Source: Candidatus Saccharimonadota bacterium
GTDB taxonomy: Bacteria; Patescibacteriota; Gracilibacteria; Absconditabacterales; Absconditicoccaceae
Direction of reading: 5' to 3'
Assembly (NCBI GenBank): GCA_030429145.1
Contig: JAUIDC010000001.1
Span: forward strand, 630,001-662,000
DNA length: 32,000 nt
Shown piece after piece: positions 1 to 32,000 of the stretch; position 1 is the first letter of the stretch, and every line of letters begins with the position of its first letter. Made by a program: the position numbers and the translations under genes. The notes below the pieces were generated by a model, which was given only the letters and a program-made list of their open reading frames with translations, made no database searches and was not told the DNA's origin.

Positions 1-88
1 GCTTGAAAATGTGATTCGTCGTTCGTTTGGTTTCGTAGGAGTACCTCTCATTATTGAGTTTAAAGAGAAAGAGGATAGACATAAGTAA
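1..88 (+). CDS. der: GTPase Der (EngA), 3' end only; the gene starts upstream of the window
   Basis: The frame from nt 2 reads LENVIRRSFGFVGVPLIIEFKEKEDRHK, then TAA at 86-88. This resembles the conserved YLEN..R..F.F.G.PI C-terminal KH-like tail of Der (from recall). Confidence 0.55.
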   Translation, partial: LENVIRRSFGFVGVPLIIEFKEKEDRHK

Positions 89-149
89 TCTTGTAATAGG
101 AGCCCCGTTCGACTATAGTGCAGGTAGTTTTATCACATTATCTTTATAG

Positions 150-791
150 ATGAAAGATATCAATTTTTACCGCGTCTTCAAGGACGACGGTCTAAAACTC
201 GGCTGGAAACACGCAAAAAAAGATTTCTTTTTCTTTTTGCAGGTGTTTGTGCTTGTTGGGATAGCAAGTGCGATTCCTATGATTGTCAATTGGATATATG
301 GTATGCCATTTGATACTCCAAACTTTGGCGATGTGATCTCGACATTGTTGAGTCTTATATTTAGCTTTGGTATGATCAAAATTTTCATCCATTTTGTTCG
401 TAAGGGGAAGGCAGATCTAAAGGATTTGCGAAATCATGACTGGGTGCGTTTTCTTCGGTGGTTTTTGACGAGAATAGTGACAGCTGTTCTTATCGGAGTA
501 GGTATGGTATTGTTGATTGTCCCTGGTATCTACGTTGCTGCAAGACTCTATCTCTATGAGTACTATGTGGTAGACCAGAAGTTAAATACGATAGAGGCTA
601 TCAGTGCAAGCTGGGAGGTGACAAAAGGTCATGTATGGCAGATCATTGGTATTGGACTGTTATCTTTTGGTATTCTGTTGTTGGGAACGCTCGCGCTTGG
701 TATTGGTCTTCTTTGGGCTATACCGACAGTGAAACTTGCCCAGGCTACGCTCTATAAGAAGCTGACTTCACATGATGAGTATCTAGCGTAA
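150..791 (+). CDS. Integral membrane protein with multiple TM helices (DUF975/YciC-like topology), function unknown
   Basis: Intact 213-aa ORF with ATG start and TAA stop. It has several long hydrophobic segments (VLVGIASAIPMIV, VLIGVGMVLLIVPGIY, LLSFGILLLGTLALGIGLLW). A TAG lies immediately upstream of the ATG. Confidence 0.8.
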   Translation: MKDINFYRVFKDDGLKLGWKHAKKDFFFFLQVFVLVGIASAIPMIVNWIYGMPFDTPNFGDVISTLLSLIFSFGMIKIFIHFVRKGKADLKDLRNHDWVRFLRWFLTRIVTAVLIGVGMVLLIVPGIYVAARLYLYEYYVVDQKLNTIEAISASWEVTKGHVWQIIGIGLLSFGILLLGTLALGIGLLWAIPTVKLAQATLYKKLTSHDEYLA

Positions 792-1201
792 TGCGTGCAT
801 TGAGCTGGAAAGAGCCATACGGCTCGCTCATGCTCTGCGGAAAAATAGAAACAAGAACCCGGTCAACGAACTATCGCTGACCGGTTTTGCTATGCTGCAG
901 TCAGAAAGGGTATACTGATAAGGAGCTGCTGCAGTGAGCAGGAGAGAAACAGTATGGGCGTATCAAGCAAGCGCTAGGTGGCAGAGAACTGCAGCATGGC
1001 CACGCTATCGCCGTAGGCGAGCTGATAGAGTGCAGGCCGATGAGACCTGAAGACGCCGATGCCTGCTTCGTTGACTATCGTCCCGGCCTGCGATGTCATG
1101 TCTATACCAATGTGAAACCAATCCAGCCCATTCCCTTTAAAGGTGGGCAGAGGCGAAAGAAAATCGATGAGAATATATTGCTACAGATCAGGTATCTATA
1201 A
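791..1201 (+). CDS. ASCH domain protein, visible only under code 25
   Basis: The ATG overlaps the upstream TAA (TAATG). In-frame TGAs lie at 878-880 and 935-937, and the stop is TAA at 1199-1201. The translation MRALSWKEPYGSLMLCGKIETRTRSTNYRGPVLL matches the ASCH N-terminal pattern (K.PWA..I..G.K..E.R...T.YRGP), with a TGA at the conserved G of YRGP. Confidence 0.7.
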
Positions 1202-1203
1202 TA

Positions 1204-1233
1204 GAAAAACTCTCCAAGCGGAGAGTTTTTTTT
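1204..1233. terminator. Bidirectional intrinsic terminator shared by convergent genes
   Basis: Stem ctctcc (1210-1215), loop aagc, stem ggagag (1220-1225). An A-run lies upstream and a T-run at 1226-1233. It sits between the ASCH stop and the DUF2231 stop. Confidence 0.75.
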
Positions 1234-1756
1234 ATGGTAAGAACTGCATAATTACTTTTACCATCGGATCAATTTCTGGTCAGTAGACCATGGCTCCACC
1301 AAGAGCTCAGGTGATGGTCAAAGCGAGAAGTCAGCCAATAGCAAGTATGTACAGTACGCCACTTCTTTTATAGAGAAAAGCTATCTTTTGTAGCAATCTA
1401 TGAGCCCAGCTACCTATCATTTTTGCCCCTAAAGAGGTCCTTACACCATCATACAATATCCACTGTGAAACATATCCCAACGTTGCCAACCCATAGAGCC
1501 AGTTTGAGAGATTACCAAAGTTTTCGTGTCGTTCAAGTATTCTTTGGGCGCCGTACCCAGCGTCTTCCATTGCCTCGCCTGAGGAAAGAGCAGCTTGTAT
1601 ACCAACCCATCCTACAACGATGAGAAATAGCTTAATATATCGAACAGTTCTATTGTGTCTCACCTTGGGAAAGAGAGATGCTATTTCAAGGAGGCTATAT
1701 ATGGTAAGTAGAGCAATGGGGAAGTGTACAACGACAGGATGGATTGTATCGAACAT
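1232..1756 (-). CDS. DUF2231-like membrane protein
   Basis: The N-terminus MFDTIHPVVVHFPIALL is the typical DUF2231 signature. The listed 141-aa ORF continues through three in-frame TGAs (first at 1331-1333) to TAA at 1232-1234, giving the tail ...AIGGLLALTITGALGGAMVYGPEIDP. Total length is 174 aa. Confidence 0.75.
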
Positions 1757-1860
1757 GAACTAATAGAAAATATATAAAATGGAAAGTTTATAAAAAACAA
1801 ACAATACTTTCCTATCTATACGTAATTGCTACTAAATTACAAAAAATTTTTCTATAAATA

Positions 1861-1896
1861 AAATAGTATGCCCGTTTATGTGGAGACATACTATTT
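1861..1896 (-). terminator. Hairpin downstream of ybaB (putative terminator)
   Basis: Perfect 10-bp inverted repeat, aaatagtatg (1861-1870) with catactattt (1887-1896), and a 16-nt loop. It lies about 50 nt downstream of the ybaB stop on the minus strand, and the flanks are AT-rich. Confidence 0.45.
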
Positions 1897-1945
1897 TGTG
1901 AGTGTTTTTAGTTGGGGATGTTTTATCTTATGGATTACTCCATAA

Positions 1946-2305
1946 CTACGATAATCCAGGGATATTTGGCATACCACCTGATCAACCACCAAGCATACCT
2001 GCCATTTGAGAAGGATCGAAACCAAGAATATCTTTAGTCTTCTCGGTAGCTATTTCTTGAGCTTTGCTTTGTCCTTTCTCGAAGGCTGTTTGTATAGCTT
2101 GTTCGAGCTTTGTTTTATGCTCTGAAGATAATACGCTTTCGTCTACAATTTCTACTTTCTTAATTTTCATCTCACCTGATATCTCTACAACCACGATAGG
2201 ATTTTCCGTATTATCTTTTGCTCTGATGATGACATTTTTCAAAGCCTCTTGAAGCTTCTTATATTTGTCATACATCTTTTTCATTTCACCGAGCTGTCCA
2301 AACAT
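1946..2305 (-). CDS. ybaB: Nucleoid-associated protein YbaB/EbfC
   Basis: MFGQLGEMKKMYDKYKKLQEAL...EISGEMKIKKVEI is typical of the YbaB family. The TGA at 1982-1984 is read through to give the tail GGGSGGMPNIPGLS, then TAG at 1946-1948. Confidence 0.8.
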
Positions 2306-2367
2306 AGTAATCTAGCTAATAATGTAAAGAGTAAGTTGTTGTTTTATGTTGACATATTTTTAGAATA

Positions 2368-3681
2368 TTATTCTTCTTTGGCCTTTTTAGATGGCGCTTT
2401 TTTAGGCTTTGCTTCTGCTTTTTCATCAGTTTTCTTTGCAGGAGCTTTCTTGGCAGGAGCCTTCTTTGGAGCACTACCAGTATGTAGTTTATCATAGAGC
2501 TTTTGCTCGGCATCCAAAGGCTTATTTCGATCAACATCGTTGATCTCTAGTAGTTCTAGTAGCTTTCTTAACATGAAGAACTTCTCGAGAGAGCTCTGTG
2601 CTGATTTCTCGATATCGTCATAGACTTTCTTCGTTCCTTCTTCTCCAATCTGATCGAAGTATTGCTTCATACCAGCTTCTCCGCCCATGCGGTCACCAAG
2701 CTGTTTGATACGAGCAGACATCTCTTCTCTCAGGATCGTATGAGGAATCTGTACACTCATAGAGTCTTTTGCTTGATCGATCACTTTTTCTACTGCTTGC
2801 TGCAGTGCATTTTCTTGTTTTTGCTGAGAAAGCACCTCATCGATCTTGTTTTTGAGGTCTTCTTCAGAGTTGATTTCCTCGCTCTGGAAGAGCTTATTCA
2901 ACACCTCTTTATCACTGAGATCAGGCATTACCACCTTTTTCACATCTATGATAGTTGCTGAGATAGTGTCAGCTTTCGCATCTTTTTTCGCTTCATCTTT
3001 TGGATGGAAGTGGAGGATATGAGGCAATTTCTTTTCATCATATTTTATCTCTACTGTCGCATCTTTTTTCTGACCAATGAACTCTTTTTTCACAAGTTCA
3101 AACTCCTCAAACTCTTCTTTCCCGATAAATGCAGAGCCTTTATCTAGCTCCTTACCGTCTTTATCTTTTACTTCAAATTTGAGCTTTGCAACAGTGTCTT
3201 CTCCGATAGTGTCAGTGTCCTGGTAGTCTGCATATTGACGACGAAGATTGTTGAGTGCATTCTCTTTTTCTTCAGCAGTTGGTGCTGTGTCTATAGTATC
3301 CATCTTGATGCTTGCCCATTTCTTGTCTTTCACTTCAACCTCTGGATAGACATCCAATTTGAATGTAATGGTCCATTCTTTTTCTTCTTTTTTATCTTGC
3401 AGATCATAAGGCTGACCAATGAACTGAATTTTCTCATTTTCTTTTACGATCTTTTGAAGCGTTTTATTGATCGCTTCTTCATACATAGCCATCTGCAGAT
3501 ATTCGGGTTTGATGTTCTTTTCCACTATGTTGAGAGGAACATGGCCTTTTCTAAAACCTGCAAATTCAAAATCTTTCTGAGCAAGTTTCAGTGCTCCTTC
3601 TTTCATTTCTTCCTGACTTTTAGCGTCTACAACTACCTTAACTTCGTAGTTTCCTTGTCCTTTTGTTAATTCGTAACTCAT
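2368..3681 (-). CDS. tig: Trigger factor with a Lys/Ala/Pro-rich C-terminal tail
   Basis: 437-aa intact ORF. The N-terminus includes the ribosome-binding signature GFRKGHVP, and length and architecture fit trigger factor. It contains no in-frame TGA. The tail is GSAPKKAPAKKAPAKKTDEKAEAKPKKAPSKKAKEE. Confidence 0.9.
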   Translation of the reverse strand: MSYELTKGQGNYEVKVVVDAKSQEEMKEGALKLAQKDFEFAGFRKGHVPLNIVEKNIKPEYLQMAMYEEAINKTLQKIVKENEKIQFIGQPYDLQDKKEEKEWTITFKLDVYPEVEVKDKKWASIKMDTIDTAPTAEEKENALNNLRRQYADYQDTDTIGEDTVAKLKFEVKDKDGKELDKGSAFIGKEEFEEFELVKKEFIGQKKDATVEIKYDEKKLPHILHFHPKDEAKKDAKADTISATIIDVKKVVMPDLSDKEVLNKLFQSEEINSEEDLKNKIDEVLSQQKQENALQQAVEKVIDQAKDSMSVQIPHTILREEMSARIKQLGDRMGGEAGMKQYFDQIGEEGTKKVYDDIEKSAQSSLEKFFMLRKLLELLEINDVDRNKPLDAEQKLYDKLHTGSAPKKAPAKKAPAKKTDEKAEAKPKKAPSKKAKEE

Positions 3682-3701
3682 ACAATGTGTGTAAAATTAT
3701 A

Positions 3702-3739
3702 AAGCAGTCCATGAGTTATAGTGATTGGACTGCTTTTTT
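3702..3739. terminator. Hairpin between the tig start and the stop of the upstream paralog gene
   Basis: Stem aagcagtcc (3702-3710) pairs with ggactgctt (3727-3735) around a 16-nt loop. The T-run at 3734-3739 is on the plus strand. It sits just downstream of the minus-strand gene 3745-4569, so the orientation of the T-run is not ideal for that gene. Confidence 0.4.
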
Positions 3740-3744
3740 CAATG

Positions 3745-4569
3745 TTATGATGAAAACTCTCTCTGGATCTTCATTTTCATCTTCTCCGCATGCTCGGGAG
3801 AGTGGATGAGTTTGACGCTGCAAGGCGCTTTCATCTTGAGAACTTGGCAAAAGAGCTCTGGTTTATAGCCCTCTATACCAACTATGGTGTCGAAAAATAG
3901 TCTGAAATGTTCGGAGATGTTTTTTGGTAGCATGCATTCAACGATATACTCTCCGATAATATCGACTGTATATCCCTGTTCTGGGAATGGTATTTCTTTG
4001 TCAGCACATACGGTCTGACATTTGTCTGCTGAGAGCTGCTGGGAAGCATACCTATCGAGAAATGTATTGTTTCCTATAAGATAGTACGATAGTTTTTCGG
4101 TGCTCATAAGATCTTCAAGGTTTGTTTTTTCTTTGAGAGGACTACCCAATAAGAAGTATGGATGTGAAGTATAATGATACGTTTGCTCTCACTCATAGAG
4201 CTTGCTCAGCTGTCCAAGGAGGTCCATGCGGATCACATTGAGATCGTAGAGGTTGTTTTCTTCTCGAATCTCTTGTTGTCACAGGCCGAGTTTGTGTAGT
4301 ATATTGGTCTCGTGCGAGAGATATACTTTTGCTGAGCTTTCAGTGAGGCCAAACAGATAGCGCATAAAGAGCGAATGCAGCTGTACTTTCCCTTTTGGTC
4401 TAATGAGTATCTGGTCGTCTATCATATGAGCGATGATCTTGTAGAAGTTTGGTAGAGAGACCGAAATTCCCTTGGCCGTACAGACCTGTTCATAGAGAGC
4501 CTGCACCGATAAATCCTTTTGCTTTGATACAACGCTGATAACAGCGTATGGCACTGTTGCATTAAACAT
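3745..4569 (-). CDS. Uncharacterised protein with a winged-helix-like N-terminus, paralog A of a tandem pair
   Basis: ORFs 4279-4569 and 3745-4149 join in frame through TGAs (4279-4281 and one more) into 274 aa. The N-terminus DLSVQALYEQVCTAKGISVSLPNFYKIIAHMIDDQILIRPKGKVQL looks like a wHTH. The C-terminus has no family I recognise. Confidence 0.8.
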
Positions 4570-4704
4570 TTTTTTGTTTTTATGAGATAAAGTTTTATTT
4601 TTGGTAGCTGTAAGATGTAGATTTTTGCATACTTATTTCAAGTACAGAGAAATCTTTGAAAATAAATTCGCAAAATATGATAATTTGTACGTGTGTAATA
4701 GATA

Positions 4705-5517
4705 TTACGTGAAATATTTCTTAATTTTTTGTTTCATTTTTTTTGCATGTTCAGGGGAGTGAATGAGTTTTAGTGAACAGCTGGCTTTCATTTTCATGAT
4801 GTTGCTGAACATGGCTATGTTGAAGTCTTGAGCTGATTTTACGGTATCAAAGAATATTTTATAGTGCTGTGTGACTGGTTCTGGTAGCACGCACTCGATG
4901 ATATAGTCGCCAACAATATTGATAAAATAACCTTCTTCAGGAAAAGGAGGCTCTGTGATGCACTTGATGGTGTAGCCTTGCATGCTAAAAAGTTCACTTC
5001 CGTACTTGTCGAGAAATGTATCATTTCAGAACAGGAAATAAGAGGTCTCTAACCCACGTCCGATCTCTTCCATATTCGCCTTCTCTTTATCGGTAATACT
5101 CAGCACATGGTAGGGATGTGAATTATAATAGTAGGCTGTCTCTTCAGGGTATTTCTTGATAAGCTGACTGAGTAAGTTCATCCAAATAATATCCAAATCA
5201 TAGAGACTTGAAGCAGTAAACGTTTTTTGTTCTCATGGTTTTACGTTGATGGTATACGCATTGTCTGAGAAGTACGTTTTGTTCACATTCTCAGCAAGCG
5301 CGACGATGAAGTGTAAGTACATAGCATGAATTTGTAGCTTGCCATTGTTTTTGACGAGTATCTGACTGTCAACCATGCGTGCGATGATCTTGTAGAAGTT
5401 CGGCAGAGAAACCTTGATCTTTTTTGCTCCCACACGTTTGTATAGTTCTTGTATGGTAAGGTCTTTTTCTTCGGCAAGACAACCGATAATAGTGTATTCT
5501 ATACATATGCGAAACAT
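4705..5517 (-). CDS. Uncharacterised protein with a winged-helix-like N-terminus, paralog B of a tandem pair
   Basis: ORFs 5233-5517 and 4705-4983 join in frame through two TGAs (5233-5235 and one in ...FLFGNDTF...) into 270 aa. It is colinear with paralog A. Shared blocks are VSLPNFYKIIA.M.D.QIL, LYDL..I.M.LL.QL, SHPY, TFLD.Y, PFPE.GY, G.YI.EC.LP, FFDT and MKMKA.CS.KLIHSPEHA.KMK.KI. Confidence 0.8.
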
Positions 5518-5586
5518 GGTTAGTGTGATTATTGAAGTAATAATTATCAGATAATGATAAAAACATTATATTTTTTATCAAATCTG

Positions 5587-5614
5587 TTGCAATAGAAAAA
5601 AAGCGCGCTATAAA
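5587..5614 (+). promoter_or_regulatory. Sigma70-like promoter candidate
   Basis: TTGCAA (5587-5592), a 16-nt spacer, then TATAAA (5609-5614). It lies in the divergent intergenic region upstream of the ambiguous 5656-6039 locus. Confidence 0.35.
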
Positions 5615-5655
5615 CTAACCGCCCAAACATAAGTTCTAATTGTAAACTGACTCAT

Positions 5656-6039
5656 ATGAGAAAAAAATTGGTGCATCACCACTATTTGTATTATGGTGTC
5701 GTCTGACGCGACATGGGTACTTGAGAAACAACAAGACAGCTATTGGAAGAATTTCTTTCAGGTCTTGTTGTTTTTCTACAAATAGGAAAGGAGACAAATA
5801 GCGCAATTATCTATGATCATATCAATAATACTCGAGTAGGAAAAAGCTATGATGGCTCAGCGCACATCATCTTTCGCTACTTTCTGGGGCAAAATGCTAT
5901 CCAACTCGATACATATAGTGCCGCCTTCTATGATAAGGAGCATATCAAAGGATTTTGTGATAGTTTTCGAAGCGTACAAAAAAATGATTTTCTTTCGATC
6001 AGCAAACATAATCCTATTCATCCGCTTTCAGCGTCCTAA
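5656..6039 (+). CDS. Hypothetical protein (code 25 only); coding status uncertain
   Basis: The frame is free of TAA/TAG from 5632 to 6037, with an ATG at 5656 and in-frame TGAs at 5704-5706 and 5722-5724. Two other frames (plus 5849-6088 and beyond, minus about 5779-6054) are also open here. No SD is evident and I recognise no family. Confidence 0.3.
5725..5774 (+). repeat. Strong inverted repeat / hairpin (terminator-like)
   Basis: aaacaacaagac (5726-5737) pairs perfectly with gtcttgttgttt (5762-5773), plus a closing G-U pair. The loop is 24 nt. The 3' arm runs into tttttc. Confidence 0.5.
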
Positions 6040-6166
6040 TGTCAATAATGACGATTATCCAAAACGAATAAAACCGAGACTAAATTGATGACACCTATTG
6101 CATATTGATATTATACCACTAAAAAACTGCGGAAAATAAAAAAATCATAAAATAAATAAAATTACA

Positions 6167-6655
6167 ATGACAACGAAAAACAAAGTTTTTGTACATTACT
6201 ATCTTATCTTTTCTACGGTAAACTTTACGAGGTCTGAATTTGCTAATGATACTCCAGATAACCGTGCTTTGTTGGAAAAGTTTATGAGAGATATGGTAGT
6301 CGCTGTCGGTATGACAGAGCTTGCACCTCCACGCTGTACCTTTAGCACGGGTATTAATAATGCTTTTACAGTGGAAATTGCTTTAGTGGAGCCACCTTCT
6401 TCTAAAGCGCAAGTTGATGTTACATTGAATGAATCAAATGCTGTGGCTCATATTTATCCCTTCCCACAGATTGAGCTTGCTGTGATGACTTGTAAAAAAC
6501 CTTCTGCAGAAGAAATTCAATGTGCTGAAGAACTTTTTACAACATTCTGGCAGGTTGAAGGTGGCTGGTTTGATTACTTTGCAAATGATCCTACTCAAGA
6601 GGAGTGGCCTCTTCGAGAAAGGAGACCCTTACAAATTCTAAAATCGAATTCATAG
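6167..6655 (+). CDS. Hypothetical protein, possibly a divergent S-adenosylmethionine decarboxylase (SpeH/SpeD class 1)-like fold
   Basis: Intact 162-aa ORF. VDVTLNESNAVAHIYPFPQIELAVMTCKKPSAEE parallels the AdoMetDC self-cleavage region V.ISESH..IHTWPE.....D.FTCG (from recall). The Glu-Ser pair is at 6431-6436, but Asn replaces His after the Ser. Confidence 0.35.
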   Translation: MTTKNKVFVHYYLIFSTVNFTRSEFANDTPDNRALLEKFMRDMVVAVGMTELAPPRCTFSTGINNAFTVEIALVEPPSSKAQVDVTLNESNAVAHIYPFPQIELAVMTCKKPSAEEIQCAEELFTTFWQVEGGWFDYFANDPTQEEWPLRERRPLQILKSNS

Positions 6656-6672
6656 GATTGCTTATCCTCCCT

Positions 6673-6707
6673 ATCACCACTGCGTATTCGCTAGTGGTTT
6701 TTTTAAT
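6673..6707. terminator. Intrinsic terminator between convergent genes
   Basis: Stem accactgcg / cgctagtggt (one bulged A) with loop tatt, followed by a T7 run. It overlaps the last codons of rlmH on the opposite strand. Confidence 0.65.
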
Positions 6708-7146
6708 AGTGATATTCTCTTCACTCCATGATGCTTTTAGCTCTGTAGACTTGTTCTAAAATTGTTAATTTTGCTAAACCGTGGGGGAGCGTAGTTTTTC
6801 CAAAGGAGAGCTTCATATTAATTATGGTCTCCAATTTAGCTTCATCTAACCCATAAGGCCCTCCAATAATGAAGGTGATATTATGATTTTTTGAAATTAA
6901 TTGAGTGAATTCTTCAGTGGAAAGGGGCTTTCCATCCTTCGAGAGAAGGATTTTGTAGTCGTCGTTTTTGGAAAGTCTGTCGATGATTTTGTCTGTTTCT
7001 TTGGCGATGATTTGGTCGCGAGTGCCATGTTTCTCGGGTTTAATAGTGATGATTTCTATTTCTTTGTTCATTCTTTTGAGATATTCATCGATAGCAGAGG
7101 AGAAATGTTTGTCGCTATCTGAAATGCATACAATCTTTACTTTCAT
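6703..7146 (-). CDS. rlmH: 23S rRNA (pseudouridine1915-N3)-methyltransferase RlmH (SPOUT family)
   Basis: MKVKIVCISDSDK...ITFIIGGPYGL...LSFGKTTLPHGLAKLTILEQVYRA is colinear with RlmH. The TGA at 6721-6723 is read through to GREYHY, then TAA at 6703-6705, matching the family's conserved ..HPYH C-terminus. The start is placed at ATG 7146; the listed TTG at 7179 is an alternative. Confidence 0.85.
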
Positions 7147-7195
7147 AAGGAGATAAGTATACTTTGATAAATTAACCAATTATACTATTTTCACG

Positions 7196-8701
7196 ATGAA
7201 ATTCTACGATAAAGTACAAGTGACATTGCAGTCATGAAAGTGAGGAGATGGCGTTGTTTCAGCACGCCGTGAAGCGAAGGTGCCTTATGGGTGACCAGCT
7301 GGAGGAAACGGAGGAAGATGAGGCTCTGTTATTTTGCGTTGATCAAAAGATGTAAATACGCTTATAGATTATAGATACGCGAGAATATTTGCAGCTCCTA
7401 AGGGAGAACCAGGAAGAACGAAAGAGCAGTATGGAAAAAATGCTGAAGATCTTGTCTTGCAGGTGCCTGTTGGAACGATTGTGCGTGATGTGGAGAGCGG
7501 ACATGTGTTACATCAGTTTCTCGCAGACGGTGATGAGTTCGTTGTGTGTCAGGGCTGACAAGGTGGCGTTGGTAATATGCACTTTAAGAATGCAGCCAAT
7601 CAGTTTCCTCAGTTTTCGCTGCTTGGAGAACCAGGTGAGACAAAGGAGGTAGAGCTTGAACTGCAGCTTCTTGGTGATGTTGCCCTCATTGGTACGCCGA
7701 GCGTAGGTAAGTCATCACTCATCAATGCAGTGAGTAATGTGAAAGCGAAAGTTGCTGACTACCCGTTTACGACACTGATACCCAATTTGGGGTCGGTCAA
7801 ACATCGTGAGTTTACGTTCAACATCGTTGATGTTCCAGGATTGATCGAAGGTGCCAGTGGATGAAAGTGACTTGGTAACCAGTTTTTGCGTCATATCTTA
7901 AAGGCGTCTGTTTTCTCATTTGTGATGGATATCTCTCGTTATGAGGAGGGAGTAGATGAGTTTAGTCAGCTTTTTGATGAGGTGTTACACTATATGCGTG
8001 AGAAATTTATGCAGAGTCGCGACTTTGGCGGTGAGATCTCAGGCATTGATTTTCAGCTGAGAAAAGAAAAGGGACAGCTTTTCTTACAAGTCCGTGCGGC
8101 GATGGCTGACGAACAGAAAGTACTGATGGAAAAGATGATTAACATCGTTCTCAATAAGCAGGATCTTGTTGACGATGAGGAGATTGTTGAGGAGTATAAG
8201 AGACACTTTCTTGCTCATACACAAAAATATATTAAAAATACGTTTGGCATATTAGTTGAGGAAAAAGAGCTTCCCGTATTTATCACTTCTGCAGTCACTC
8301 GTCAGGGGGTTGATAGTTGGCTCGATGCGTTGCAGCATTATCTCCAGTATGACAGAGATCATATCTCTATGTTATTATTTGATGTTGTTCCCGTTGCAGC
8401 AAAACCTGAAGGACATATCCGTGAAGTGACAGAGGAGACTTTGCCACGGCTGATAGAGCATGAATATCTTGAAGAAACAGATGCTAAATATGCAAAGGTG
8501 CGAGAGGTCGCTGATGCAGAGTTTTGTCGTCTTGGCTATATGTTGCCATGGGGCAATGACGAAGCAGAACTTTGGTTCTGGAATGTGATGTGAAAAAAGC
8601 GCTTTGTACAGAAATTAGAGACAGCTGGTATCGTAAAAGGTGATATTATTAAGATAAAATCGCTCTACGGAGGCGTTGAAGACAGATACATTAGATATTA
8701 G
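7196..8701 (+). CDS. obg: GTPase Obg/CgtA with C-terminal OCT-like domain
   Basis: Nine in-frame TGAs, including 7235-7237 and 7241-7243. Under code 25 the N-terminus reads [61 protein letters not shown], the classic Obg glycine-rich fold. G1 is GTPSVGKSS, G3 is DVPGLIEGASGGKGLG and G4 is NKQD. The tail ...GKKRFVQKLETAGIVKGDIIKI is OCT-like. The stop is TAG at 8699-8701. Confidence 0.92.
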
Positions 8702-8784
8702 TACCAATTTTTCTTGTAAAGTAGCCTTAAATGGTTATCGTTAGGGTTCATCAAAAATAAAAGTAGAGAAAATACCCATTAATT

Positions 8785-9255
8785 ATGTGCAAACACGTAG
8801 ATTTTATTGTTCCTGCGGGAGACGAGGCCATAGTTACACAGATAAGAGGACTGTGTGAAGCAAATGATATGGATTACTCCATTATCTATCATGGCAAAGT
8901 AATGTTTAGGGGAAGTGAGTTTACATTGCTTTCTTCCGATGACTCTGTTTATACTGGGCCAATAGAACAGTATGAGTGCATGAAGAGAGTTTATCATTCT
9001 TCACTTCGATTAAGGTATGCGCTTATGTGTTCGGTTTATCCGTTGGTGAGTTGTATTGATAAGAAAATCGAATCAATTGCTAACCCACCTTTTTCTATAA
9101 ATGACCTTATAAACAGAACTATTATTCTTTTTGGGAGTTGTCCCATGTTCCAAAAGTGGGTTAATTATTCACTTAATCGATATGGTAGAAGGACAGATCC
9201 ATTGTCTGTTTATCCATGTATGGAACAAGTTATATCAGAGCTAAGGGGGGAATAA
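8785..9255 (+). CDS. Hypothetical Cys-rich protein
   Basis: Intact 156-aa ORF with ATG start and TAA stop, ending inside a terminator hairpin. It has no TGA codons and I recognise no family. Confidence 0.6.
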   Translation: MCKHVDFIVPAGDEAIVTQIRGLCEANDMDYSIIYHGKVMFRGSEFTLLSSDDSVYTGPIEQYECMKRVYHSSLRLRYALMCSVYPLVSCIDKKIESIANPPFSINDLINRTIILFGSCPMFQKWVNYSLNRYGRRTDPLSVYPCMEQVISELRGE

Positions 9256-9265
9256 CCCCCTTTTT
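9245..9265 (+). terminator. Intrinsic terminator
   Basis: gggggg (9245-9250), loop aataa, ccccc (9256-9260), then ttttt (9261-9265). It overlaps the stop codon of the 8785-9255 gene. Confidence 0.7.
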
Positions 9266-9633
9266 CTTAATATAAAAAAACCCACTAACCGAAGTCAGCA
9301 AGCTTTTTAGAGGGAGAGAGAGTAAATATCGTTGCCAACATACATATACACGTCAAAGACGTTCATATATCCTTATATAATCACATGCTTTTTCGGTGAG
9401 ATACTAGGTATCTTTGCGGCTATCGGATGATAATACGCTATGGTTTTAGCATAGAGTACTGATCTGGGAAGATCAACTACATAATATGATGCATGACTTA
9501 TCAGGTTCTGATCGCTCAGATTGACTTGTCTAACCATATAGTTTTACCTACTGGGTATATAACACAAGGTTATATTTTTTGCAGTTATCTGTAGGTTATA
9601 CAGATACAATGTTGACTGACATCTATCCTTCTC

Positions 9634-9803
9634 CCTAGGAGAGACACTGTCACATAGAGCCAAGCTCGCACGATTGAGTGAGGGGTGACCTCAGATTCAA
9701 TAGTGGTCTGATATACCCTTATAACAGACTAGTAGACAACTCTATAGTATATTGTTAGTAAGGTTTTTGTGTATATCGTATATGTAGCAGTGTCTGTCTT
9801 AGG
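9634..9803. repeat. Long-range imperfect inverted repeat enclosing about 138 nt (candidate structured RNA or relic element)
   Basis: cctaggagagacactg (9634-9649) pairs with cagtgtctgtcttagg (9788-9803): 14 Watson-Crick pairs, 1 G-U pair and 1 mismatch over 16 positions. The pyrimidine/purine flanks (ccttctcc / ggaagaaa) partly extend the pairing. Several small internal hairpins are present, for example tcaga...tctga and gtctg...cagac. Confidence 0.55.
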
Positions 9804-10029
9804 AAGAAAAACGCGTGCCGTTTTGATGACGATATTTCTTTGAATGACCTTCATTGTATAACCCATTATATAGCATTTTTCGAAAATTGTCAAATTTTTT
9901 GCTACTTTTTTACTCTTTTTTGTGAAGAAAACAAAAAACGCCTCTATAAAAGGCTTTTCACATGCTTCCCCCTTCCATATTAAGCTAATAATCTACATAT
10001 TTACTTGTAAAATACTCTCATAATCATAC

Positions 10030-10037
10030 AAGGAGGG
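10030..10037 (+). promoter_or_regulatory. Shine-Dalgarno site of the pilin gene
   Basis: AAGGAGGG, with AGGAGG at 10031-10036, lies 7 nt upstream of the TTG at 10044. It is the strongest SD I saw in the window; most other genes lack an obvious one. Confidence 0.55.
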
Positions 10038-10043
10038 GAGATT

Positions 10044-10691
10044 TTGTTCTATGTGTATGAGATGTACTCCAAAAAGTATTTTCAACAATCCTTTACCCTG
10101 ATAGAAATGCTGATAGTCATCGTGATTATTGGTATTTTGGCGGCAGCACTTGTCCCAAGATTGACTGACATGCAGGCAAGAGCAAGGGATACCAAAAGAA
10201 AAGTGGATCTTAAAAATATTCACGATGCAGTCATGGTCTACTTTGCCGACAATGGACAATATCCTCTGCATACTAATCAATATACCAATACATATGCTTT
10301 TGTCTGTCCGACAGGATCAGGCTATAATAATATTTGTTATATTGGTAGCGCTGGACATGCCAATCCTGGTACTCAATGGTTTCCAACATTATCATCATAC
10401 ATGAGCCCAATGCCTATAGACCCAATTAATCAGAATACTGAATTTGCCTATGGTAGAGCATTTAGAACTGGTTACTACAACTACTATTATGGTAACGTAT
10501 ACAACAGCCCTGTGCATTCTTTTGACTTGGGTGCTCGCCTAGAAAACCGTCAGGATCCAGATAGATGTGGACTGAAGCTCTACAAAATGTGATCTACTAA
10601 TGCCGCAGCCTGTCCGGGGAATGCAACCTCATTCGGATTCTTTGATAGTATTATGATCTATGATTATTCACCACCGTATGCTACTAATTAA
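10044..10691 (+). CDS. Type IV pilin / pseudopilin-like protein with N-terminal prepilin motif
   Basis: The leader MFYVYEMYSKKYFQQS is followed by FTLIEMLIVIVIIGILAAALVPRL (class III signal, Glu at +5). The TGA at 10590-10592 is read through (..YKMGSTNAAACPGN..) to TAA at 10689-10691. The start could instead be ATG 10062. Confidence 0.8.
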
Positions 10692-22849: not shown

Positions 22850-24103
22850 CTATAATCACTTCACTGCTTCGATATACTGCTCAGCGCGATCTTTCCAGTC
22901 TTTAAACATATCAAAGCTTGCGCATCACGGACTGAGAAGAATGACTTGTATACTATGTTTTTGTGCATGCTCATAAGCTAGTTTCACTGCCTCTTGCATG
23001 GATGATGCTTTGTCGTGTTCGATCTCTTTTGCTTCAGCGATCTCTATAAATTGCGGGGCAGTAGTGCCAATGAACACGCCATAGCCAACTTTTTGTTTCA
23101 TGAGTTCTGCAAGAGCACTAAAGCTGTCGCCCTTGTCTGATCAACCTGCTATCAGTACGATCGGCCCAGGGAATGCTTCAAGGGCGACCCTCAACGACTG
23201 CGAACTTGTCGACTTCCCATCATCATAAAAGCTGATGCCATTTTTCTCGTTGATCAATTGCATTCTATGAGCTAGCGGCTCTATGGCATTGATTGCTTCA
23301 TGTATCTCAGTTTCACTTATCGTCAATCCATAGTCTTGCACAAGAGTTTTTACCAGCAGATAGCACGCCTGTATATTACCTGCATTGTGTGTACCGACAA
23401 ACTGAGTATCAGCCAGAGGATAGTCGTTATTATAAAGCGTCAAAGGCGCTGTATGGTCTAAAGCTATCCCTTGTTCCGCTAACGTATCCAAAACGCCCTG
23501 CATTGTAAAAACCGCCTTGGTGGAATGCTGTAAAAGTCTATATTTTGTCGCCACATAATCTTTCATGTCGGGATGCCAATTGAGATGATCTGGCGAAATA
23601 TTTGTCCAAATCGCATAATCAAATCGCAAATCTTCAAGTCCATACAAAAGAAACGATGACACTTCACACACGACGATATGTTTCTGCTCAGTCAATCATC
23701 CTTCTACTATATGATTGAGCGTCGTAGCAATCGACTCATCAAAATTTCCACTCAACCAAACATTATATCATGTATTTACTCACTTCAAAAGCTCATAGAG
23801 CACATGACTAACAGTGGACTTCCCATCGGTTCCCGTTACACCGACAAAACGGAGATTCTCTCCTCGGGCCTGTTTCTTCAGAAACTGCCCGATAAAATTG
23901 AGCTCAGAGATTGTCTTCTCGCCATATTTCTGATAGATATCACTATCTGGTTTCACGGCTTGATGCACGATAATTTGTTCTGCCTTCTCAAACAGCTCCT
24001 CATCTCGGCTGTTATAATCAATACTCTTTGCCTCAATATCAAAATGCTGTAGCAATTGTTCCAACGGCTTCCCAATCTTTCCCTGTCCAAATATCGCGAT
24101 CAT
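22850..24103 (-). CDS. murD: UDP-N-acetylmuramoylalanine--D-glutamate ligase
   Basis: ORFs 23780-24103 and 23141-23695, plus the unlisted tail, join through six TGAs. Motifs present are MIAIFGQGKIG, VGVTGTDGKSTV (Mur ligase P-loop), EVSSFLL, WTNISPDHLNWH, DDGKSTS and LLSPGCASFDMF. The stop is TAG at 22850-22852. 417 aa. Confidence 0.9.
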
Positions 24104-24185: not shown

Positions 24186-26681
24186 TTATTCGTCATCGTT
24201 TTCTGACTCTTTTTCAGCTTTGGCTTCGGCTTTTCTTTCTTCTTTCCAAGCCTTGTTTTCCGCTTTTTCTTCCCATGGTCTGTAGATGCGCTCGATAGTA
24301 CCTGAGACGATCTTTTCTAGAGGAGTGTCTGGCATGTCGAGAAGTACCTTGTCAGAGTGAACAGTCTTGAGTTCTCCAGTAGTAAGTTTGATTCTTACTG
24401 AACCTTCTACCATGGCGAGAGCTCCTGTTACTTTGTCTTTCCCTTCCATCTGCGCTACTTCTAGTGACTTACCACCGCGTTTACCGTATTGTGACTTGCC
24501 AAATACAAGGTCTTCGATAGCAACCATCTTCGCTGAGTTGGTGCTATTGACCATGATAAACGGCTCATCTTTGTAGATGAAGAGGGCAGCAGGATTGTCG
24601 CTTTCATCAGGAGTAGAGATGGCTTTGACTCCAGCAGCTGTCTTACCCATAGGACGACATTGCTCTTCAGGGAAGAGTGACAAGTATCCTTTTTGAGAGA
24701 GTACGCCGATCTTATCGTTGTCTCTTACTGCTGCTACAGCGATGATTGACTCTTTGTCCTTCAGGCTCATGATGCTTGTTGGGAATTTCTTAAACCCTAG
24801 AAGCACATCTTTCTTGATCTTCTTTAGGTTGTTTCCTGACGAGAGCATAACGAGCTCCTTATAGTCATGAAGCATAGAGTTACAGAAGATAACATTTCCC
24901 TTGAGTCCCCATTCTTCCTTTGGATTGACAGGATTTGATTTCATATTGTGAGAACCAATATCTTTAAGTCTCTGGATGACAAGTTCACCCTTATCAGTGA
25001 TAACGATGAGTTTGTCTTGGTTGTGTGTGTAGATAACCTCGAGAGTGTCATCAGGGAGCACGTTGACTCTTGACTGGTAGAGGATTCTAAACGACTGATC
25101 AGCTCCAATCCAGAGGATGACGTCTTCTTTCACTGCATCTTCTTTTGCAAGAAGTTCTTTCATACGATTTGAAAGATTTGCTGTACCATCAGCTACAAGC
25201 TCAGTTCTTCTTTCATCTCCGAAAGTCTTTTTGATATAGTTCATCTCGTCTTTTACCACCTTGTCGAGCTTCTTTGGATCATTAATGATGCCCTCTAGGT
25301 ATTCAATAAGTTTCTTTTTCTCGTCGATTTCATCAAGAATCTTTTGGATTTCCAGACCTACCAATGACTGTAGTCTCATCTGGAGGATATACTCAGCCTG
25401 TACATCGGTAAACTCAAATTTCTTGCCCATCAACTTTTCTTTTGCCTCTGCTTTGTCTGATGAGTTTCTAATCGCTGCGATCACATCATCGAGGATGTCG
25501 ATAGCACGCTTTAGACCTTCAAGAATATGAAGTCTATCTTTTGCCTTCCCGAGCTGGTAGACAGATCTTCTATAGACAACCTGTCTTCTGAACTCTACGA
25601 ACTCTACAAGGAGATCTTTGATGTTAAGAAGTCTTGGCTGCATCCCTTTTTCGATCAATGTCACATTGTTCACATTGAAGTTAGATTGAAGCTCTGTGTA
25701 TTTGAAAAGCTTTGTCAGTACAGCCTGTGCGTCTACGCCCTTTTTCAATGTGATAGACACTCTCATTCTTTCTCTATTTGACTCATCACGGATATCAGTA
25801 ATACCTTCAAGCTTTTTATCTACTACTAATTCACCAATTTTACCAACGAGCGTTGACTTATTTACCTGATACGGAATCTCATCAATAACAATAACTTTTC
25901 CATTTTTCCCGTCTTCAATGTGCGTCTTACCTCTTACGGTAATACCACCTTTTCCAGTTTCATACACCTGTCTGATATTCTCTTTGTCGAACATCATACC
26001 TCCGGTAGGGAAGTCAGGACCTTGGATGATCTCCATGATCTCATCGATCGTTGCCTCGGCATTGTCCATGAGCATGAGCGATGCATCAATAACTTCCGTG
26101 AGGTTATGAGGAGCCATGTTTGTTGCCATACCTACAGCGATACCCATTGTTCCGTTACAGAGGTGATTTGGAAATTTAGTCGGAAGCATAATAGGTTCTT
26201 CACGAGAGTCGTCGTAGTTTTTCTTCCAGTCTACAGTGTCCTGATCGATATCAGCAAGCATCTCTTCAGCAATCTTTGTCAATCTTGCTTCCGTATACCT
26301 CATCGCAGCTGCGCCGTCACCGTCGATAGAACCAAAGTTACCTTGTCCATCTACGAGTGGATATCTCAAAGAAAATGGCTGAGCTAGTCTTACCATAGCA
26401 TCGTACACTGATGAGTCACCGTGTGGATGGTACTTACCAAGAACCTCTCAGACTACTGTTGCAGACTTTCTAAACTTTGCATTGTGGTTGAGTCCGATAT
26501 CATGCATAGCATAGAGGATACGTCTGATCACCGGTTTCATACCATCTCTTGTATCAGGTAGTGCACGAGATACGATTACCGACATGGCATAGTCGATATA
26601 TGATTGTGTAATCTCTTGTTCAATCGAGTGAGGCATAGTTTGTTCTACTATCTCCTTTTGTTCATTTTTCTTGTCTGCCAT
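24186..26681 (-). CDS. gyrA: DNA gyrase subunit A
   Basis: The start is placed at ATG 26681 (MADKKNEQ...). There is a single TGA at 26448-26450, at the conserved Gly of [17 protein letters not shown]. The active-site region is [11 protein letters not shown], followed by a C-terminal beta-pinwheel region and a charged tail. 831 aa. Confidence 0.93.
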
Positions 26682-28258: not shown

Positions 28259-28313
28259 AACCGTTTGTTTTTGTTACAGAAAAAATATAGACTTTTAGAA
28301 ACATATTACAAAT

Positions 28314-28343: not shown

Positions 28344-28360
28344 CTCAAATGAGTATATTT

Positions 28361-28924: not shown

Positions 28925-28952
28925 AGTAGCGATACGTTATGGGCATGTAAAA

Positions 28953-29435
28953 TTATTTGTCGAGCTGCTTTTTTAGCTTCTCGTATTGGTTTTGTAGTAG
29001 TTTTACTTTCTCTTCTACTTGATATTTTTCATTGATATCGTTCCATCTTCCCGTGAGCTTTTCTTGCACATCTTCGATGCGTTCTTGTACCATAGTACTT
29101 ATCTCTTGAGCTTTTTTATGAGCAGCTTCGTTTGCCTTTTCCTTTCGCTCTGCTACTTTGTCTTCAAGCTCTTCTAGCTTAGACTCGAGCATTGCTACTT
29201 CTTTTTGGAAAAAAGCTTTTACTTCTTCCCACTTACCTTCGTAGTCAAACTCTCTTACGTCTTCGATCATTTCTTTGTTGGTGTCCAATCGTCCGTCGAA
29301 AAAAGCTTTTGCTTTCTTACCAAAAGTTGGTGCTTTAGCAACTTTTTTCTGGAGATTTTTATCTTTGTACCAAAGCACTGCTGCTTGTCCAAGGATAAAA
29401 CCGATTGCTCATCGCTTCCATTTCTTCAATACCAT
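28953..29435 (-). CDS. YtxH-like membrane-anchored coiled-coil protein
   Basis: The listed ORF (GTG at 29378) extends upstream through the TGA at 29409-29411 to ATG 29435. The result, MVLKKWKRGAIGFILGQAAVLWY, is a YtxH-style N-terminal helix, followed by a long Lys/Glu-rich helical region. Confidence 0.55.
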
Positions 29436-29508
29436 ACGTTTGTGGGATGACAAAATAAAAAGGTTGTTCCCTAAAATACTACCCAATATATGAGAATTTG
29501 CAAGGGGA

Positions 29509-30651
29509 TTACAAGACAAACTGTTTTACGAGCTCATAGATGATACCAAATGAGAAGATGATAATGACTGCGTAGGAGAAGAGTTTATTGTAGGGGAGGA
29601 TATGTGTTTCTTTTTTGTTATGTCTTTTATGGAGCATAAGATTGGTTACTCCAATATGAAAGCAGGTTAGTCCGGTAAATACGGCACCGGAAATCGAGAT
29701 GATTTTGACGAAATCGGCCTGGAGGTAGAGAAAGAGAAGAAGAGGACCAAGTGCTACCAGTGTTCGTGAGATGAGAGACGAGAGTTTGAATTGTACTTTG
29801 AGAGTTTGTTGAAGATGCTCTCCATTGACGAAGTGGGGCGAGATGATAGCGAAGAGTCATACTAGCCCACCTAGTTTAATGACTCGAGACGGAAGAACAG
29901 TTTGTAGTCCGCTCAATGCATCTTGTGAGGTTGCAGCTCAGGACATTCCGACAACGGCCCATCACCAAAGAAGTACCATACTCATGCAAATGAGCCCCGC
30001 TATCACAATCAAAAACGGCAGATCTTTTTTCTCTCTTCAGAGAATCTCTTCTGATACAGGTATTGTGGAAGCATTGTTGAGGGCGTAGATGAGTACGCCG
30101 TATGGGAGGAACCATTGTGCTTTATCGCCAAGAAGAAAGTGTTCAGGTGTTGTGTGAAGAAATCCGTAGATGATCAGGAAGATGAGCATACACAGGAGTA
30201 TGGTGACGATTTTTTTATCATACTTTTTTATGCCATCTACTCACTTGTAGATAAATCATCCCATGATGAGTGCGTAGACCGTCGCAGAAATAGCTGGTTC
30301 GAATGCGCTGTTCGGTCAAAGGATAACATTGACAAAGATGCTACTCAAAGAGATATACGCAAACATCGTAGCAAGGTACTGCAAACATGTGGCAATGGTA
30401 GCAAACTTCCCTCGCCTTTTAGGAAGCAACAATTGCATCATGGCTGGGAGGCGCATCCTGCTTGGGAGGCTAAGAGCTACCTCAGCGATGAGCAAATTGA
30501 GGATGATCGCTAAAGAGCCAATAAGAAGTATCCACATAGTCCCTTGTAGCACTCAGGCCTGTGCAAAAGCATAGGGCACACCAAATAATCACGCTCCGAG
30601 CGTGCCTCAGATGATAGTAGAAACTGCAATAAGATTATTTTTTGTTAACAT
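29509..30651 (-). CDS. Amino acid permease (Aa_trans / aromatic amino acid permease-like), visible only under code 25
   Basis: ATG at 30651, TAA at 29509-29511, 380 aa, ten in-frame TGAs. MLTKNNLIAVSTIIGGTLGAGLFGVPYAFAQAGVLQG is the typical N-terminal permease signature. About 10-11 hydrophobic segments follow. Confidence 0.8.
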
Positions 30652-30666
30652 TTTGTATGATAGTTT

Positions 30667-32000
30667 CTATGAGTCTAAAAGTGAACGTAATTTTGCAATG
30701 CCAGTAGGATTCAACTGTCTTTCGATAGCTCCGATAGTGACCTGATGTTCTCCCGGATGTTGTTTGACAACCTGTGCTACCTGTTGTAGTAACGATGGGT
30801 TATCAGGGAGGGCGAACTGCATAGGTCATGTGGCTTCTTCATTGCTTGAACTGCCTCAGCCAGTGCTGTTATTTTCGTCGTTGCTATTGCTATCACTATC
30901 GCTTTCATCATCTCTGAGTTCGTCTGACGCTTTTTCAGCTTGTTTGAGGCTGATCGTCTCGCCTGTTTCGCTGTCGACGATCTCATCTTCGAGGTCTCCT
31001 GTACCGTGTGCCAGTGCATTGACACCGAGCCTGGTAGTTTTTACCTCCGCGACGGATTCATCATTGTATTTATTTGATTTTTTTGCTTCTTCTATGATAC
31101 TTTCTAGCGATGTTTTCACGATTTTACTGATCTTAAGAGATCTGTTTTTCCAACCTTCAATAATCAAAATATCAAACTTCTGGATATCCAAAGTCTCTTT
31201 CATGAAAAACTCTATCTCATCGGAAATATCTTCTACTGCGACAAAATATCACTTCTTTTTTGCTCTCTGAATGTTTCTCACGAAACAGAGGATCTTCACA
31301 TTGCCAAAGGCCTGTTCTTTGTCGTAATATTTGAACATGCTGATAAGCGAGTATCTTCCTTTGATATATGGATAGAGTCCATCAAATGGATGACCTGACA
31401 CAAATGTTTTAAATACATCATATTCGGTCAGCAGTTTTTCCATTTTACTGGTTGGCTCTGCTTGTTCGAGCTCGAGTTTTGGCTTCACATCGGCGACCGC
31501 AAATAAGCTCTGCTCAGCATTGTTGCTACCCGCCATTTTTACCCACTCAATGATGCGGGGCACATTGTGGAGGATTGTCTTGCGGTCAACAAAACCTGAG
31601 AACGCTCACGCCTTTGCGAGAGATTCCAGTGTTTTTTTGTTGATGAGACTCTCGCACCTTGTGAGAAAATCTTCGAGATCTTTGAACGGACCGTTCTGTC
31701 TTCTTTCTTGCTCGATCTGTTCGCTGACGTCGCCGCCGACTCATTTGATACATTGAAATCCAAGCCTGATCGAATCGTCTATGGCGGCGACATGTCTGAA
31801 CGACTCATTGACATGAGGCGGTAGCACGCGATATCCCTGCAGCTTCAGCTCATTAATAAACTTACTGAGTTTCTCAGCATCTTCTTCAACAGACCTTAGC
31901 AAGGCTGCATTGAACTCAATAGGGTAGTTCGCCTTGAGATAAGCCGTCTGATATGAGAGCATACCATATGTTACCGAGTGGGACTTATTGAATGAGTAGA
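30667..32000 (-). CDS. dnaE: DNA polymerase III alpha subunit DnaE, 3' portion (continues beyond the window)
   Basis: Fragments 31741-31962, 31249-31563 and 30856-31203 share one frame through five TGAs. Matching segments are AYLKANYPIEFNAALL, GYRVLPPHVNES, RLGFQCIKGVGGDV (TGA at 31741-31743), LESLAKAGAFSG (TGA at 31606-31608) and the OB-fold region VSGHPFDG. The stop is TAG at 30667-30669. Confidence 0.9.

Follow-up and report, generated by a model that had tools for sequence, protein, structure and literature searches.

A 32 kb window of an Absconditabacteria-type genome fits a three-codon variant code: UGA as glycine, CGA and CGG as likely tryptophan

The stretch of DNA analyzed here, hereafter the window, is 32 kb long (positions 630,001 to 662,000 of contig JAUIDC010000001.1; guanine-plus-cytosine (G+C) content of about 0.40-0.41), and the subject of this work is the genetic code in which its genes are written. 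Comparison of its genes with homologous proteins and with the DNA of related genomes suggests that three codons have changed their meaning. UGA is almost certainly glycine in this organism, CGA can be taken as tryptophan with high confidence, and CGG is probably tryptophan as well. The combined code, in which these three codons are reassigned, the other 61 are standard and the only stops are UAA and UAG, is proposed with good confidence. This three-codon variant had already been predicted for Absconditabacteria, and its UGA part has been known since 2013.

Genes of the window and their in-frame TGA codons

The conserved genes that carry the argument are the following, with the TGA, CGA and CGG codons that they contain in frame.

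150 to 791, plus strand: DUF975-type membrane protein; CGA 429, CGG 456.
788 to 1201, plus strand: small conserved protein; TGA 878 and 935; CGG 860; CGA 1091 and 1154.
7196 to 8701, plus strand: obg, 501 amino acids; nine TGAs (7235, 7241, 7292, 7319, 7340, 7556, 7862, 7868 and, in the tail, 8591); CGG 8447; CGA 8501.
11937 to 12950, minus strand: DHH/DHHA1 phosphoesterase (NrnA-like; Pfam DHH and DHHA1); TGA 12837, 12228 and 12048; CGA 12708, 12468, 12327 and 12258.
12975 to 13436, minus strand: TspO/MBR family protein, 153 amino acids (Pfam TspO_MBR); no TGA; CGA 13341, 13326, 13311 and 13092.
13418 to 15895, minus strand: class B penicillin-binding protein (PBP), 825 amino acids (Pfam Transpeptidase); nine TGAs; CGA 15578.
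17025 to 18317, plus strand: hisS, 430 amino acids; TGA 17040, 17178, 17205 and 17970; CGA 17136.
19507 to 20853, plus strand: dnaB, 448 amino acids; TGA 20308; no CGA or CGG.
22850 to 24103, minus strand: murD, 417 amino acids; six TGAs; CGA 24005, 23864 and 23624.
24186 to 26681, minus strand: gyrA, 831 amino acids; TGA 26448; 38 arginine codons, none of them CGA or CGG.
29509 to 30651, minus strand: Trp/Tyr-permease-family transporter, 380 amino acids (Pfam Trp_Tyr_perm); ten TGAs and three CGAs.
30667 to 31998, minus strand: C-terminal part of dnaE, which continues past the window edge (Pfam HHH_6); five TGAs; no CGA or CGG.

The first indication that TGA is a sense codon comes from the gene map itself. 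In the standard code, the window holds two stop-to-stop open reading frames (ORFs) of at least 300 amino acids, and this number rises to 12 when TGA is read as sense. When one of the other stops is removed instead, it amounts to 2 (TAG) or 7 (TAA). A curated set of 32 read-through genes covers 87.7% of the window and contains 75 in-frame TGAs, always with the frame kept; 24 of these genes terminate in TAA, eight in TAG and none in any other codon. Pfam domains run uninterrupted across the TGAs, e.g. GTP1_OBG (positions 2-155 of 155) and DNA_topoisoIV (1-431 of 432), and the same holds for DnaB_C, Transpeptidase, tRNA-synt_His, DHH/DHHA1, the Mur ligase domain, Trp_Tyr_perm and the DnaE HHH_6. 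An earlier sequence-only reading of this DNA had stated that its conserved genes are broken by TGA alone without loss of frame, that they end in TAA or TAG once stitched together, and that they contain about 70 sense TGAs. All three statements are borne out by the curated set. The individual TGAs that it singled out (those of Obg, 12048 in DHHA1, 17970 in HisRS, 26448 in GyrA, 31741 and 31606 in DnaE, 878, and 20308 in DnaB) are likewise genuine and in frame.

Could these TGAs be real stops of the standard code, in a region of widespread pseudogenes? The fragmented standard-code ORF map is all that speaks for this explanation, whose probability we consider negligible. It would mean that gyrA, dnaB, dnaE, hisS, obg and murD, which are essential, are all broken. 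Across the window, 75 of 75 interruptions are TGA, the frame is never changed, and the identical pattern is found in 13 related genomes.

The share of TGA among glycine codons is uneven among genes (chi-square p = 0.002). It is low in gyrA (1/54) and dnaB (1/26), nil in the trigger factor gene (0/18), and high in the permease gene (10/32) and obg (9/51). Differences in expression, or in the availability of the tRNA that reads UGA, might be the cause. A view of the TGAs as relics of old stops was discarded, as they are not enriched at gene ends (three within the last eight codons against about two expected). To note, the last TGA of the PBP gene (13433-13435) shares bases with the TspO start codon ATG, the two forming the sequence ATGA (window 13433-13436). 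Such an ATGA is the classic stop/start overlap of standard-code bacteria, and here the PBP reading frame continues four codons further to the TAA at 13418-13420.

Glycine at the TGA codons

The assignment of TGA to glycine is secure because three mutually independent kinds of evidence converge on it: homologues of solved structure, Pfam scores, and the interchange of codons in the DNA of relatives. The solved structures all come from standard-code organisms. Among the Obg TGAs, seven of the eight that can be aligned face glycine in the B. subtilis, T. thermophilus and E. coli proteins, and the eighth (7340) faces Ala or Val. TGA 26448 of GyrA is glycine in all solved GyrA chains shown, TGA 20308 of DnaB in five of five chains shown (RTGQL or RTGKL), and TGA 12048 is the first glycine of the DHHA1 GGGH motif in four of four homologues. 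All four HisRS TGAs are glycine in the Nostoc structure; that of motif 3 (17970) corresponds to glycine in two structures from bacteria and to Cys in human HisRS. In the PBP, TGAs 14651 and 13895 face glycine in three of three solved structures and 13682 in two of three, while four further aligned TGA sites lie in variable columns. In MurD, TGA 23141 is glycine in three of four solved structures and TGA 22925 stands opposite Ala or Gly. DnaE TGA 31606 (KAGAF) is glycine in Taq, M. tuberculosis and E. coli. The residue facing a TGA is thus mostly glycine, as the sequence-only reading had anticipated, and tryptophan is found opposite none of them in the solved homologues of Obg, MurD, PBP, HisRS, GyrA, DHH, DnaB and DnaE.

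For the Pfam comparison, the same genes were translated with either Gly or Trp at TGA, CGA and CGG being masked. The score is higher with Gly in eight of eight domains, and the summed gain is 55 bits. GTP1_OBG reaches 186.8 bits with Gly against 162.2 with Trp, and Trp_Tyr_perm 60.7 against 38.9, while the gains are +2.2 and +5.1 bits for the DHH/DHHA1 gene.

The third kind of evidence rests on two sets of relatives. An Obg-based scan of GTDB species genomes yielded ten loci (L001-L010; 37-59% identical), and three further loci, L012, L013 and L014, are syntenic with the window (GyrA 76%, 85% and 74% identical, respectively). The obg gene of each of the ten loci contains between 7 and 31 in-frame TGAs. 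In the alignment of these 11 obg genes, a TGA is opposite glycine in 72.5% of the non-TGA cells, and opposite Trp or Cys in none. When the three syntenic relatives and the ten obg loci are taken together, the partners of the window TGA sites are GGN codons (40%) and TGA itself (35%).

These data bear directly on translation table 4, in which UGA is tryptophan. This alternative has two points in its favor: a tryptophan is present at the GyrA TGA site both in a database protein identical to that of the window (P0001) and in 40 of 122 public relatives, and a 2026 preprint reports the first cases of UGA-to-Trp reassignment in Patescibacteriota. The database residue would, however, be expected from any pipeline that chooses between tables 11 and 4 alone. 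Moreover, table 4 has against it the absence of Trp at TGA in every solved homologue, the lower Pfam scores with Trp in eight of eight domains, and the lack of TGA-TGG pairing in the obg alignment (share of 0.000). It is hence extremely unlikely. The claim that TGA encodes glycine therefore stands, since structures, Pfam scores and the DNA of relatives agree on it.

Tryptophan at the CGA and CGG codons

CGA and CGG were examined because the Codetta study (PMC8629427) predicts both as tryptophan in Absconditabacteria. The window genes contain 42 CGA, 5 CGG and 78 TGG codons (45, 5 and 84 per 10,000 codons, respectively), so that CGA and CGG would make up 38% of tryptophan-type codons. The relatives introduced above served for a codon-by-codon comparison, which was confined to curated genes and replaced an all-ORF version contaminated by antisense frames.

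In this comparison, the partners of window CGA codons are TGG (31%), CGA (15%) and CGG (10%), followed by Leu and Phe codons. Conversely, CGT, CGC, AGA and AGG are paired with Arg (51-73%) and Lys (11-18%) codons and essentially never with Trp, as expected if they have remained arginine. The exchange is seen from the other side as well, since CGA is the partner in 21% of cells at window TGG sites. Counted by site, a Trp-like partner (TGG, CGA or CGG) is found at 13 of 18 CGA/CGG sites against 2 of 182 sites of the other Arg codons (Fisher p = 1e-14), and an Arg or Lys partner at 2 of 18 against 147 of 182 (p = 4e-9). CGA thus interchanges with TGG rather than with AGR or CGY codons. When all 64 codons were checked, departures from the standard meaning were detected at TGA, CGA and CGG only. 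In addition, not one of the 74 Arg-box codons that gyrA, dnaB and dnaE contain in total is CGA or CGG, an outcome with P = 2e-5 if these two codons meant arginine. The pairing of CGA/CGG with TGG is observed in all 11 related lineages that provide enough data.

The pattern is also visible gene by gene. The TGG codon for residue 152 of the window GyrA is CGA in five of five aligned relatives. The CGA codons of the PBP (15578) and of hisS (17136) are both TGG in L012 and L014. In murD of the closest relative, L013, two of the three CGA codons (23864 and 23624) are replaced by TGG and the third (24005) by CGG. The obg CGA 8501 corresponds to TGG in four relatives, to CGA or CGG in two and to Phe or Met in two. 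In the permease gene, CGA 29884 and 29764 are also CGA in relatives, and 30412 is opposite Leu or Phe. The CGA codons of the DHH gene are located in columns that are variable or hydrophobic (N/L/I, Y/V/S), and none of them is opposite arginine. With respect to CGG, this codon is paired in relatives with a window TGG at seven sites, several of them in L013, and the obg CGG 8447 lies in a variable column.

Further evidence, which includes standard-code or broadly sampled homologues, comes from three protein families in which CGA aligns with Trp or another aromatic residue. The first is TspO. The CGA codon for residue 37 faces Trp in both the B. cereus and the R. sphaeroides structures, and that for residue 42 faces Trp in the latter species and Met in the former. 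In a set of 150 representatives taken from 1.84 billion protein clusters, Trp outnumbers every other residue at three of the four CGA columns: residue 37 (W 51, F 32, R 3), residue 42 (W 36, S 14, R 12) and residue 115 (W in 89 of 149). The fourth column, residue 32, is dominated by Leu (L 78, R 0), and Arg does not exceed 11% in any of the four. As controls, the TGG columns at residues 48 and 137 have W in 104 of 114 and 138 of 143 sequences, respectively, and the AGA column at residue 34 is occupied by K (82) and R (11).

The small protein encoded at 788-1201 belongs to a small family (11 homologues, about 50% identity). The sequence-only reading had labeled it ASCH, a name that could not be upheld, as no Pfam or PDB match was obtained under any translation. 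In this family, TGA 878 is glycine in 11 of 11 homologues, CGA 1154 corresponds to W (8) or F (3), and CGA 1091 to W, Y or F, with one Cys. Nine of the 11 have Trp at CGG 860; the arginine of the remaining two may itself be a mistranslated CGA or CGG codon. In homologues of the DUF975-type protein, the CGA 429 column contains F 14, I 12, W 9 and R 2, and the CGG 456 column W 10 and R 8. The Arg residues of these columns (both of those at 429 and six of eight at 456) belong to the closest relatives, among them the database entry for the window protein itself, and are probably CGA or CGG codons translated as arginine. In a pair of tandem paralogs (3745-4569 and 4705-5517), CGA 4264 is opposite Phe, and TGA 5026 is opposite a GGN glycine codon.

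Translation of CGA and CGG as Trp instead of Arg raises the Pfam scores of DUF1967 (+7.0 bits), TspO (+6.1, from 86.4 to 92.5), DUF2231 (+5.5), Trp_Tyr_perm (+2.6, to 63.3), FtsJ (+1.1) and DHH (+0.9). The DUF1967 domain of Obg clears the Pfam cut-off solely with Trp (32.5 against 25.5 bits). The scores of NUDIX (-0.1), LigT_PEase (-0.3), DHHA1 (-0.5) and 2_5_RNA_ligase2 (-7.4) are lowered. This test has low power because many CGAs fall on poorly conserved columns, and its outcome is taken as partial support.

Plain table 25, with UGA as glycine and all other codons including CGA and CGG standard, is the code that the sequence-only reading had assigned to the window. Its UGA part is fully supported. 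With regard to the other two codons, it can draw on the 7.4 bits gained by 2_5_RNA_ligase2 when Arg is placed at three CGAs of a LigT-like gene just outside the window, and on two CGA codons, 24005 of murD, opposite Arg in L012, and 16904, opposite Lys. Against it stand the site counts given above, the dominance of Trp at the TspO CGA columns in standard-code homologues, the Trp at CGG 860 in most homologues of its family, and the absence of CGA and CGG from the Arg-box codons of gyrA, dnaB and dnaE. We regard it as very improbable. Table 25 does not fit the window because it requires all other codons to be standard, which is not the case at CGA and probably not at CGG; CGA, and CGG on thinner evidence, behaves as Trp rather than Arg.

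A different alternative is an ambiguous or incomplete reassignment, in which CGA and/or CGG would be decoded sometimes as Arg and sometimes as Trp, or CGG would have stayed Arg with CGA as Trp. The mixed Pfam differences and the small number of CGG codons in the window are compatible with it. The Codetta authors also found CGG to be Trp in some Gracilibacteria and Arg in others, and they point out that experiments alone exclude ambiguity (PMC8629427). However, a tRNA with anticodon UCG would read both CGA and CGG, making split meanings hard to achieve (PMC8629427). Furthermore, both informative CGG sites of the window favor Trp, and the CGG codons of L013 stand opposite window TGG at several sites. 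A code of this type is unlikely.

Several observations nevertheless weigh against the proposed three-codon code and should be considered together. As regards TGA, 49 sites have aligned relatives: all partners are Gly or TGA at 27 of them and the majority Gly at 8, and there is no Gly at all at 12. In addition, TGA 935 faces a nearly invariant Ile in homologues. Invariant glycines, on which the sequence-only reading had placed the TGAs, are found at most of its examples, but not at TGAs in general. Even among its examples, Obg 7340 is an exception in the solved structures, and at DnaE 31741 the glycine is seen in E. coli, with Asn in both Taq and M. tuberculosis. As regards CGA and CGG, codons 24005 and 16904 are each opposite Arg or Lys in a single relative. 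The CGG assignment rests on five window codons, two of them informative (860 and 456). The Pfam comparison of Trp and Arg is mixed, with six domains up, four down and a net gain of merely 15 bits. The search for the decoding machinery did not bring support either: ARAGORN detected no tRNA gene in the window and eight in the 14 related loci, none with anticodon UCA, UCG or CCG, and the release factor motif GGQ[HN]VN is absent from the approximately 260 kb of window and loci, which is uninformative for the whole genome. Finally, the evidence is comparative throughout, and it would take peptides to exclude ambiguous decoding.

The literature on this clade suggests how the three-codon code could operate. 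UGA would be read by a tRNA-Gly with anticodon UCA, and release factor 2 would have been lost, so that UGA would no longer be a terminator and release factor 1 would be left for UAA and UAG. CGA and CGG would be read by tRNAs with anticodons UCG and CCG and tryptophan identity (G73, no A20), and CGU and CGC would be kept as arginine by a tRNA-Arg with anticodon GCG. An Rfam search returned no match in the window or in its four closest loci.

Known codes, public copies and the wider lineage

The reassignment of UGA to glycine in SR1 and Gracilibacteria, NCBI table 25, was described by Campbell et al. (2013) and Rinke et al. (2013) (both cited in PMC8629427). With the codes of these organisms the window shares UGA as a glycine sense codon, UAA and UAG as the only stops, and a small-genome, uncultured host of the candidate phyla radiation; it differs in that CGA and CGG, which are Arg in table 25, are Trp-like. 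Codetta (Shulgina and Eddy 2021) predicted UGA as Gly and both CGA and CGG as Trp for Absconditabacteria (PMC8629427), and a 2026 paper takes this three-codon code as established for Absconditabacterales (PMC13092985). The same three codons with the same three meanings are found here, together with CGU, CGC, AGA and AGG as Arg and AGA as the main Arg codon. The G+C content of the window lies slightly above that of the Codetta clades (0.26-0.38; PMC8629427), so the low-G+C correlate does not hold; low G+C with rare CGA and CGG is, however, a correlate and not a defining trait, and 32 kb may not represent the genome. CGA is also more frequent, with 45 per 10,000 codons against fewer than 37 in the Codetta clades, a comparison that is not strict as the latter figure covers Pfam-aligned codons only.

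Two other codes show partial resemblance. Table 4, used by Mycoplasma and Spiroplasma, shares with the window a sense UGA, a dispensable release factor 2 and identical gene boundaries, but UGA means Trp there, whereas in the window it aligns with Gly and never with Trp. In Anaerococcus and the RFN20 Bacilli (PMC8629427), as in the window, a CGN arginine codon has been captured by tryptophan; in these bacteria, CGG alone has changed, CGA remains Arg and UGA a stop, whereas in the window CGA is the main reassigned codon.

To our knowledge, NCBI has assigned no table number to the three-codon variant, and experiments have not confirmed it to date. The window provides independent, alignment-level support for the reading of CGA and CGG as tryptophan, so far a computational prediction, and does so in a lineage that uses the reassigned codons comparatively often.

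The consequences for annotation are already visible in public data. Positions 1-10127 of the window are identical to a Logan contig from run ERR3428547 (24.5 kb; L011, 1-10127 as the reverse complement), which ends at window 10127 and extends 7.6 kb to the left of the window. Its genes were called in the standard code and are fragmented, Obg into pieces of 235 and 95 amino acids and FtsH into AAA and M41 pieces, in line with the prediction that a standard-code pipeline would wreck this region. The end of this contig was placed by the analysis inside the noncoding gap 9256-10061. For GyrA, the Trp of the 100% identical database protein, recorded on a 936,577-nt contig from NCBI and Logan, at the TGA 26448 site can be inferred to be a code-4 mistranslation. 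In the 122 public relatives, besides the 40 with W in the TGA column, 30 columns show a mixture of W and G, and R is present in 6-34 sequences at columns of conserved Trp. Such W/G mixtures and R at Trp columns are the expected trace of translation with table 4 (or table 11). According to a 2026 preprint, a widely used coding-density rule chooses only between tables 11 and 4, and table 4 is selected by such pipelines because the gene boundaries come out alike.

Other features of the window can be summarized briefly. The tandem paralogous genes at 3745-4569 and 4705-5517, both on the minus strand, are 44% identical (E = 2e-85), and the one copy scanned had no Pfam match. Two further genes encode pilin-type proteins, and genes of this type are conserved near gyrA and hisS in relatives:

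10062 to 10691: type IV pilin-like protein with an N-terminal methylation motif.
16018 to 16416: T4SS_pilin-family protein.

HisRS carries a C-terminal NUDIX domain in L012 (17989-19644) and L014 (9233-10909), with a length of 551-558 amino acids, and the window HisRS has none; in L011, a MutT-like NUDIX gene of its own is found directly to the left of the window. We considered whether the ORF upstream of hisS could be a displaced piece of such a fused gene, but rejected this, the NUDIX domain of the relatives being C-terminal and no frameshift being present. The noncoding gaps at 9256-10061 (about 800 bases) and 5518-6166 (about 650) revealed no convincing ORF, Rfam match or tandem repeat.

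As for the lineage, GyrA and Obg are related to proteins of SR1/Absconditabacterales, which agrees with the clades, Gracilibacteria and Absconditabacteria (SR1), for which the sequence-only reading had named the recoding as described. The organism is assigned to GTDB class JAEDAM01, in the SR1/Absconditabacteria-Gracilibacteria group. Identity of its GyrA to named SR1 or Gracilibacteria proteins does not exceed 62%, and to other relatives it reaches 72-85%. The records of the related loci are titled Absconditabacterales, "Peribacteria" or uncultured bacterium. Four of them (L003, L005, L008 and L010), titled "uncultured Candidatus Peribacteria bacterium", have in-frame obg TGAs on Gly positions, within the range of 7-31 given above. 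These four loci would use the variant code because their TGAs occupy Gly positions and their CGA codons pair with TGG, and their "Peribacteria" label looks wrong or too broad.

Every protein sequence derived from this genome depends on the code that is applied. With table 11 the genes fall to pieces, with table 4 Trp is placed at 75 Gly positions within 32 kb, and with table 25 Arg remains at 47 Trp positions, including conserved-Trp columns of TspO. Mistranslations of this kind spread to protein databases, profile models, structure predictions and phylogenies. It is conceivable, although we hold this tentatively, that the three-codon code is the stable ancestral code of a clade wider than the named Absconditabacteria. 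In its favor are the pairing of CGA/CGG with TGG in 11 of 11 lineages, some of them recorded as "Peribacteria" or "uncultured bacterium", and the large share of CGA and CGG among Trp codons at a G+C content of about 0.40, above the low-G+C range to which the change has been attributed, so that in the lineage of the window the reassignment would have advanced beyond what is described. If this were the case, the reassigned codons would have rebounded in use after their capture, all annotations made with tables 25, 4 or 11 in this clade would contain systematic errors, and the code would merit a translation table of its own.

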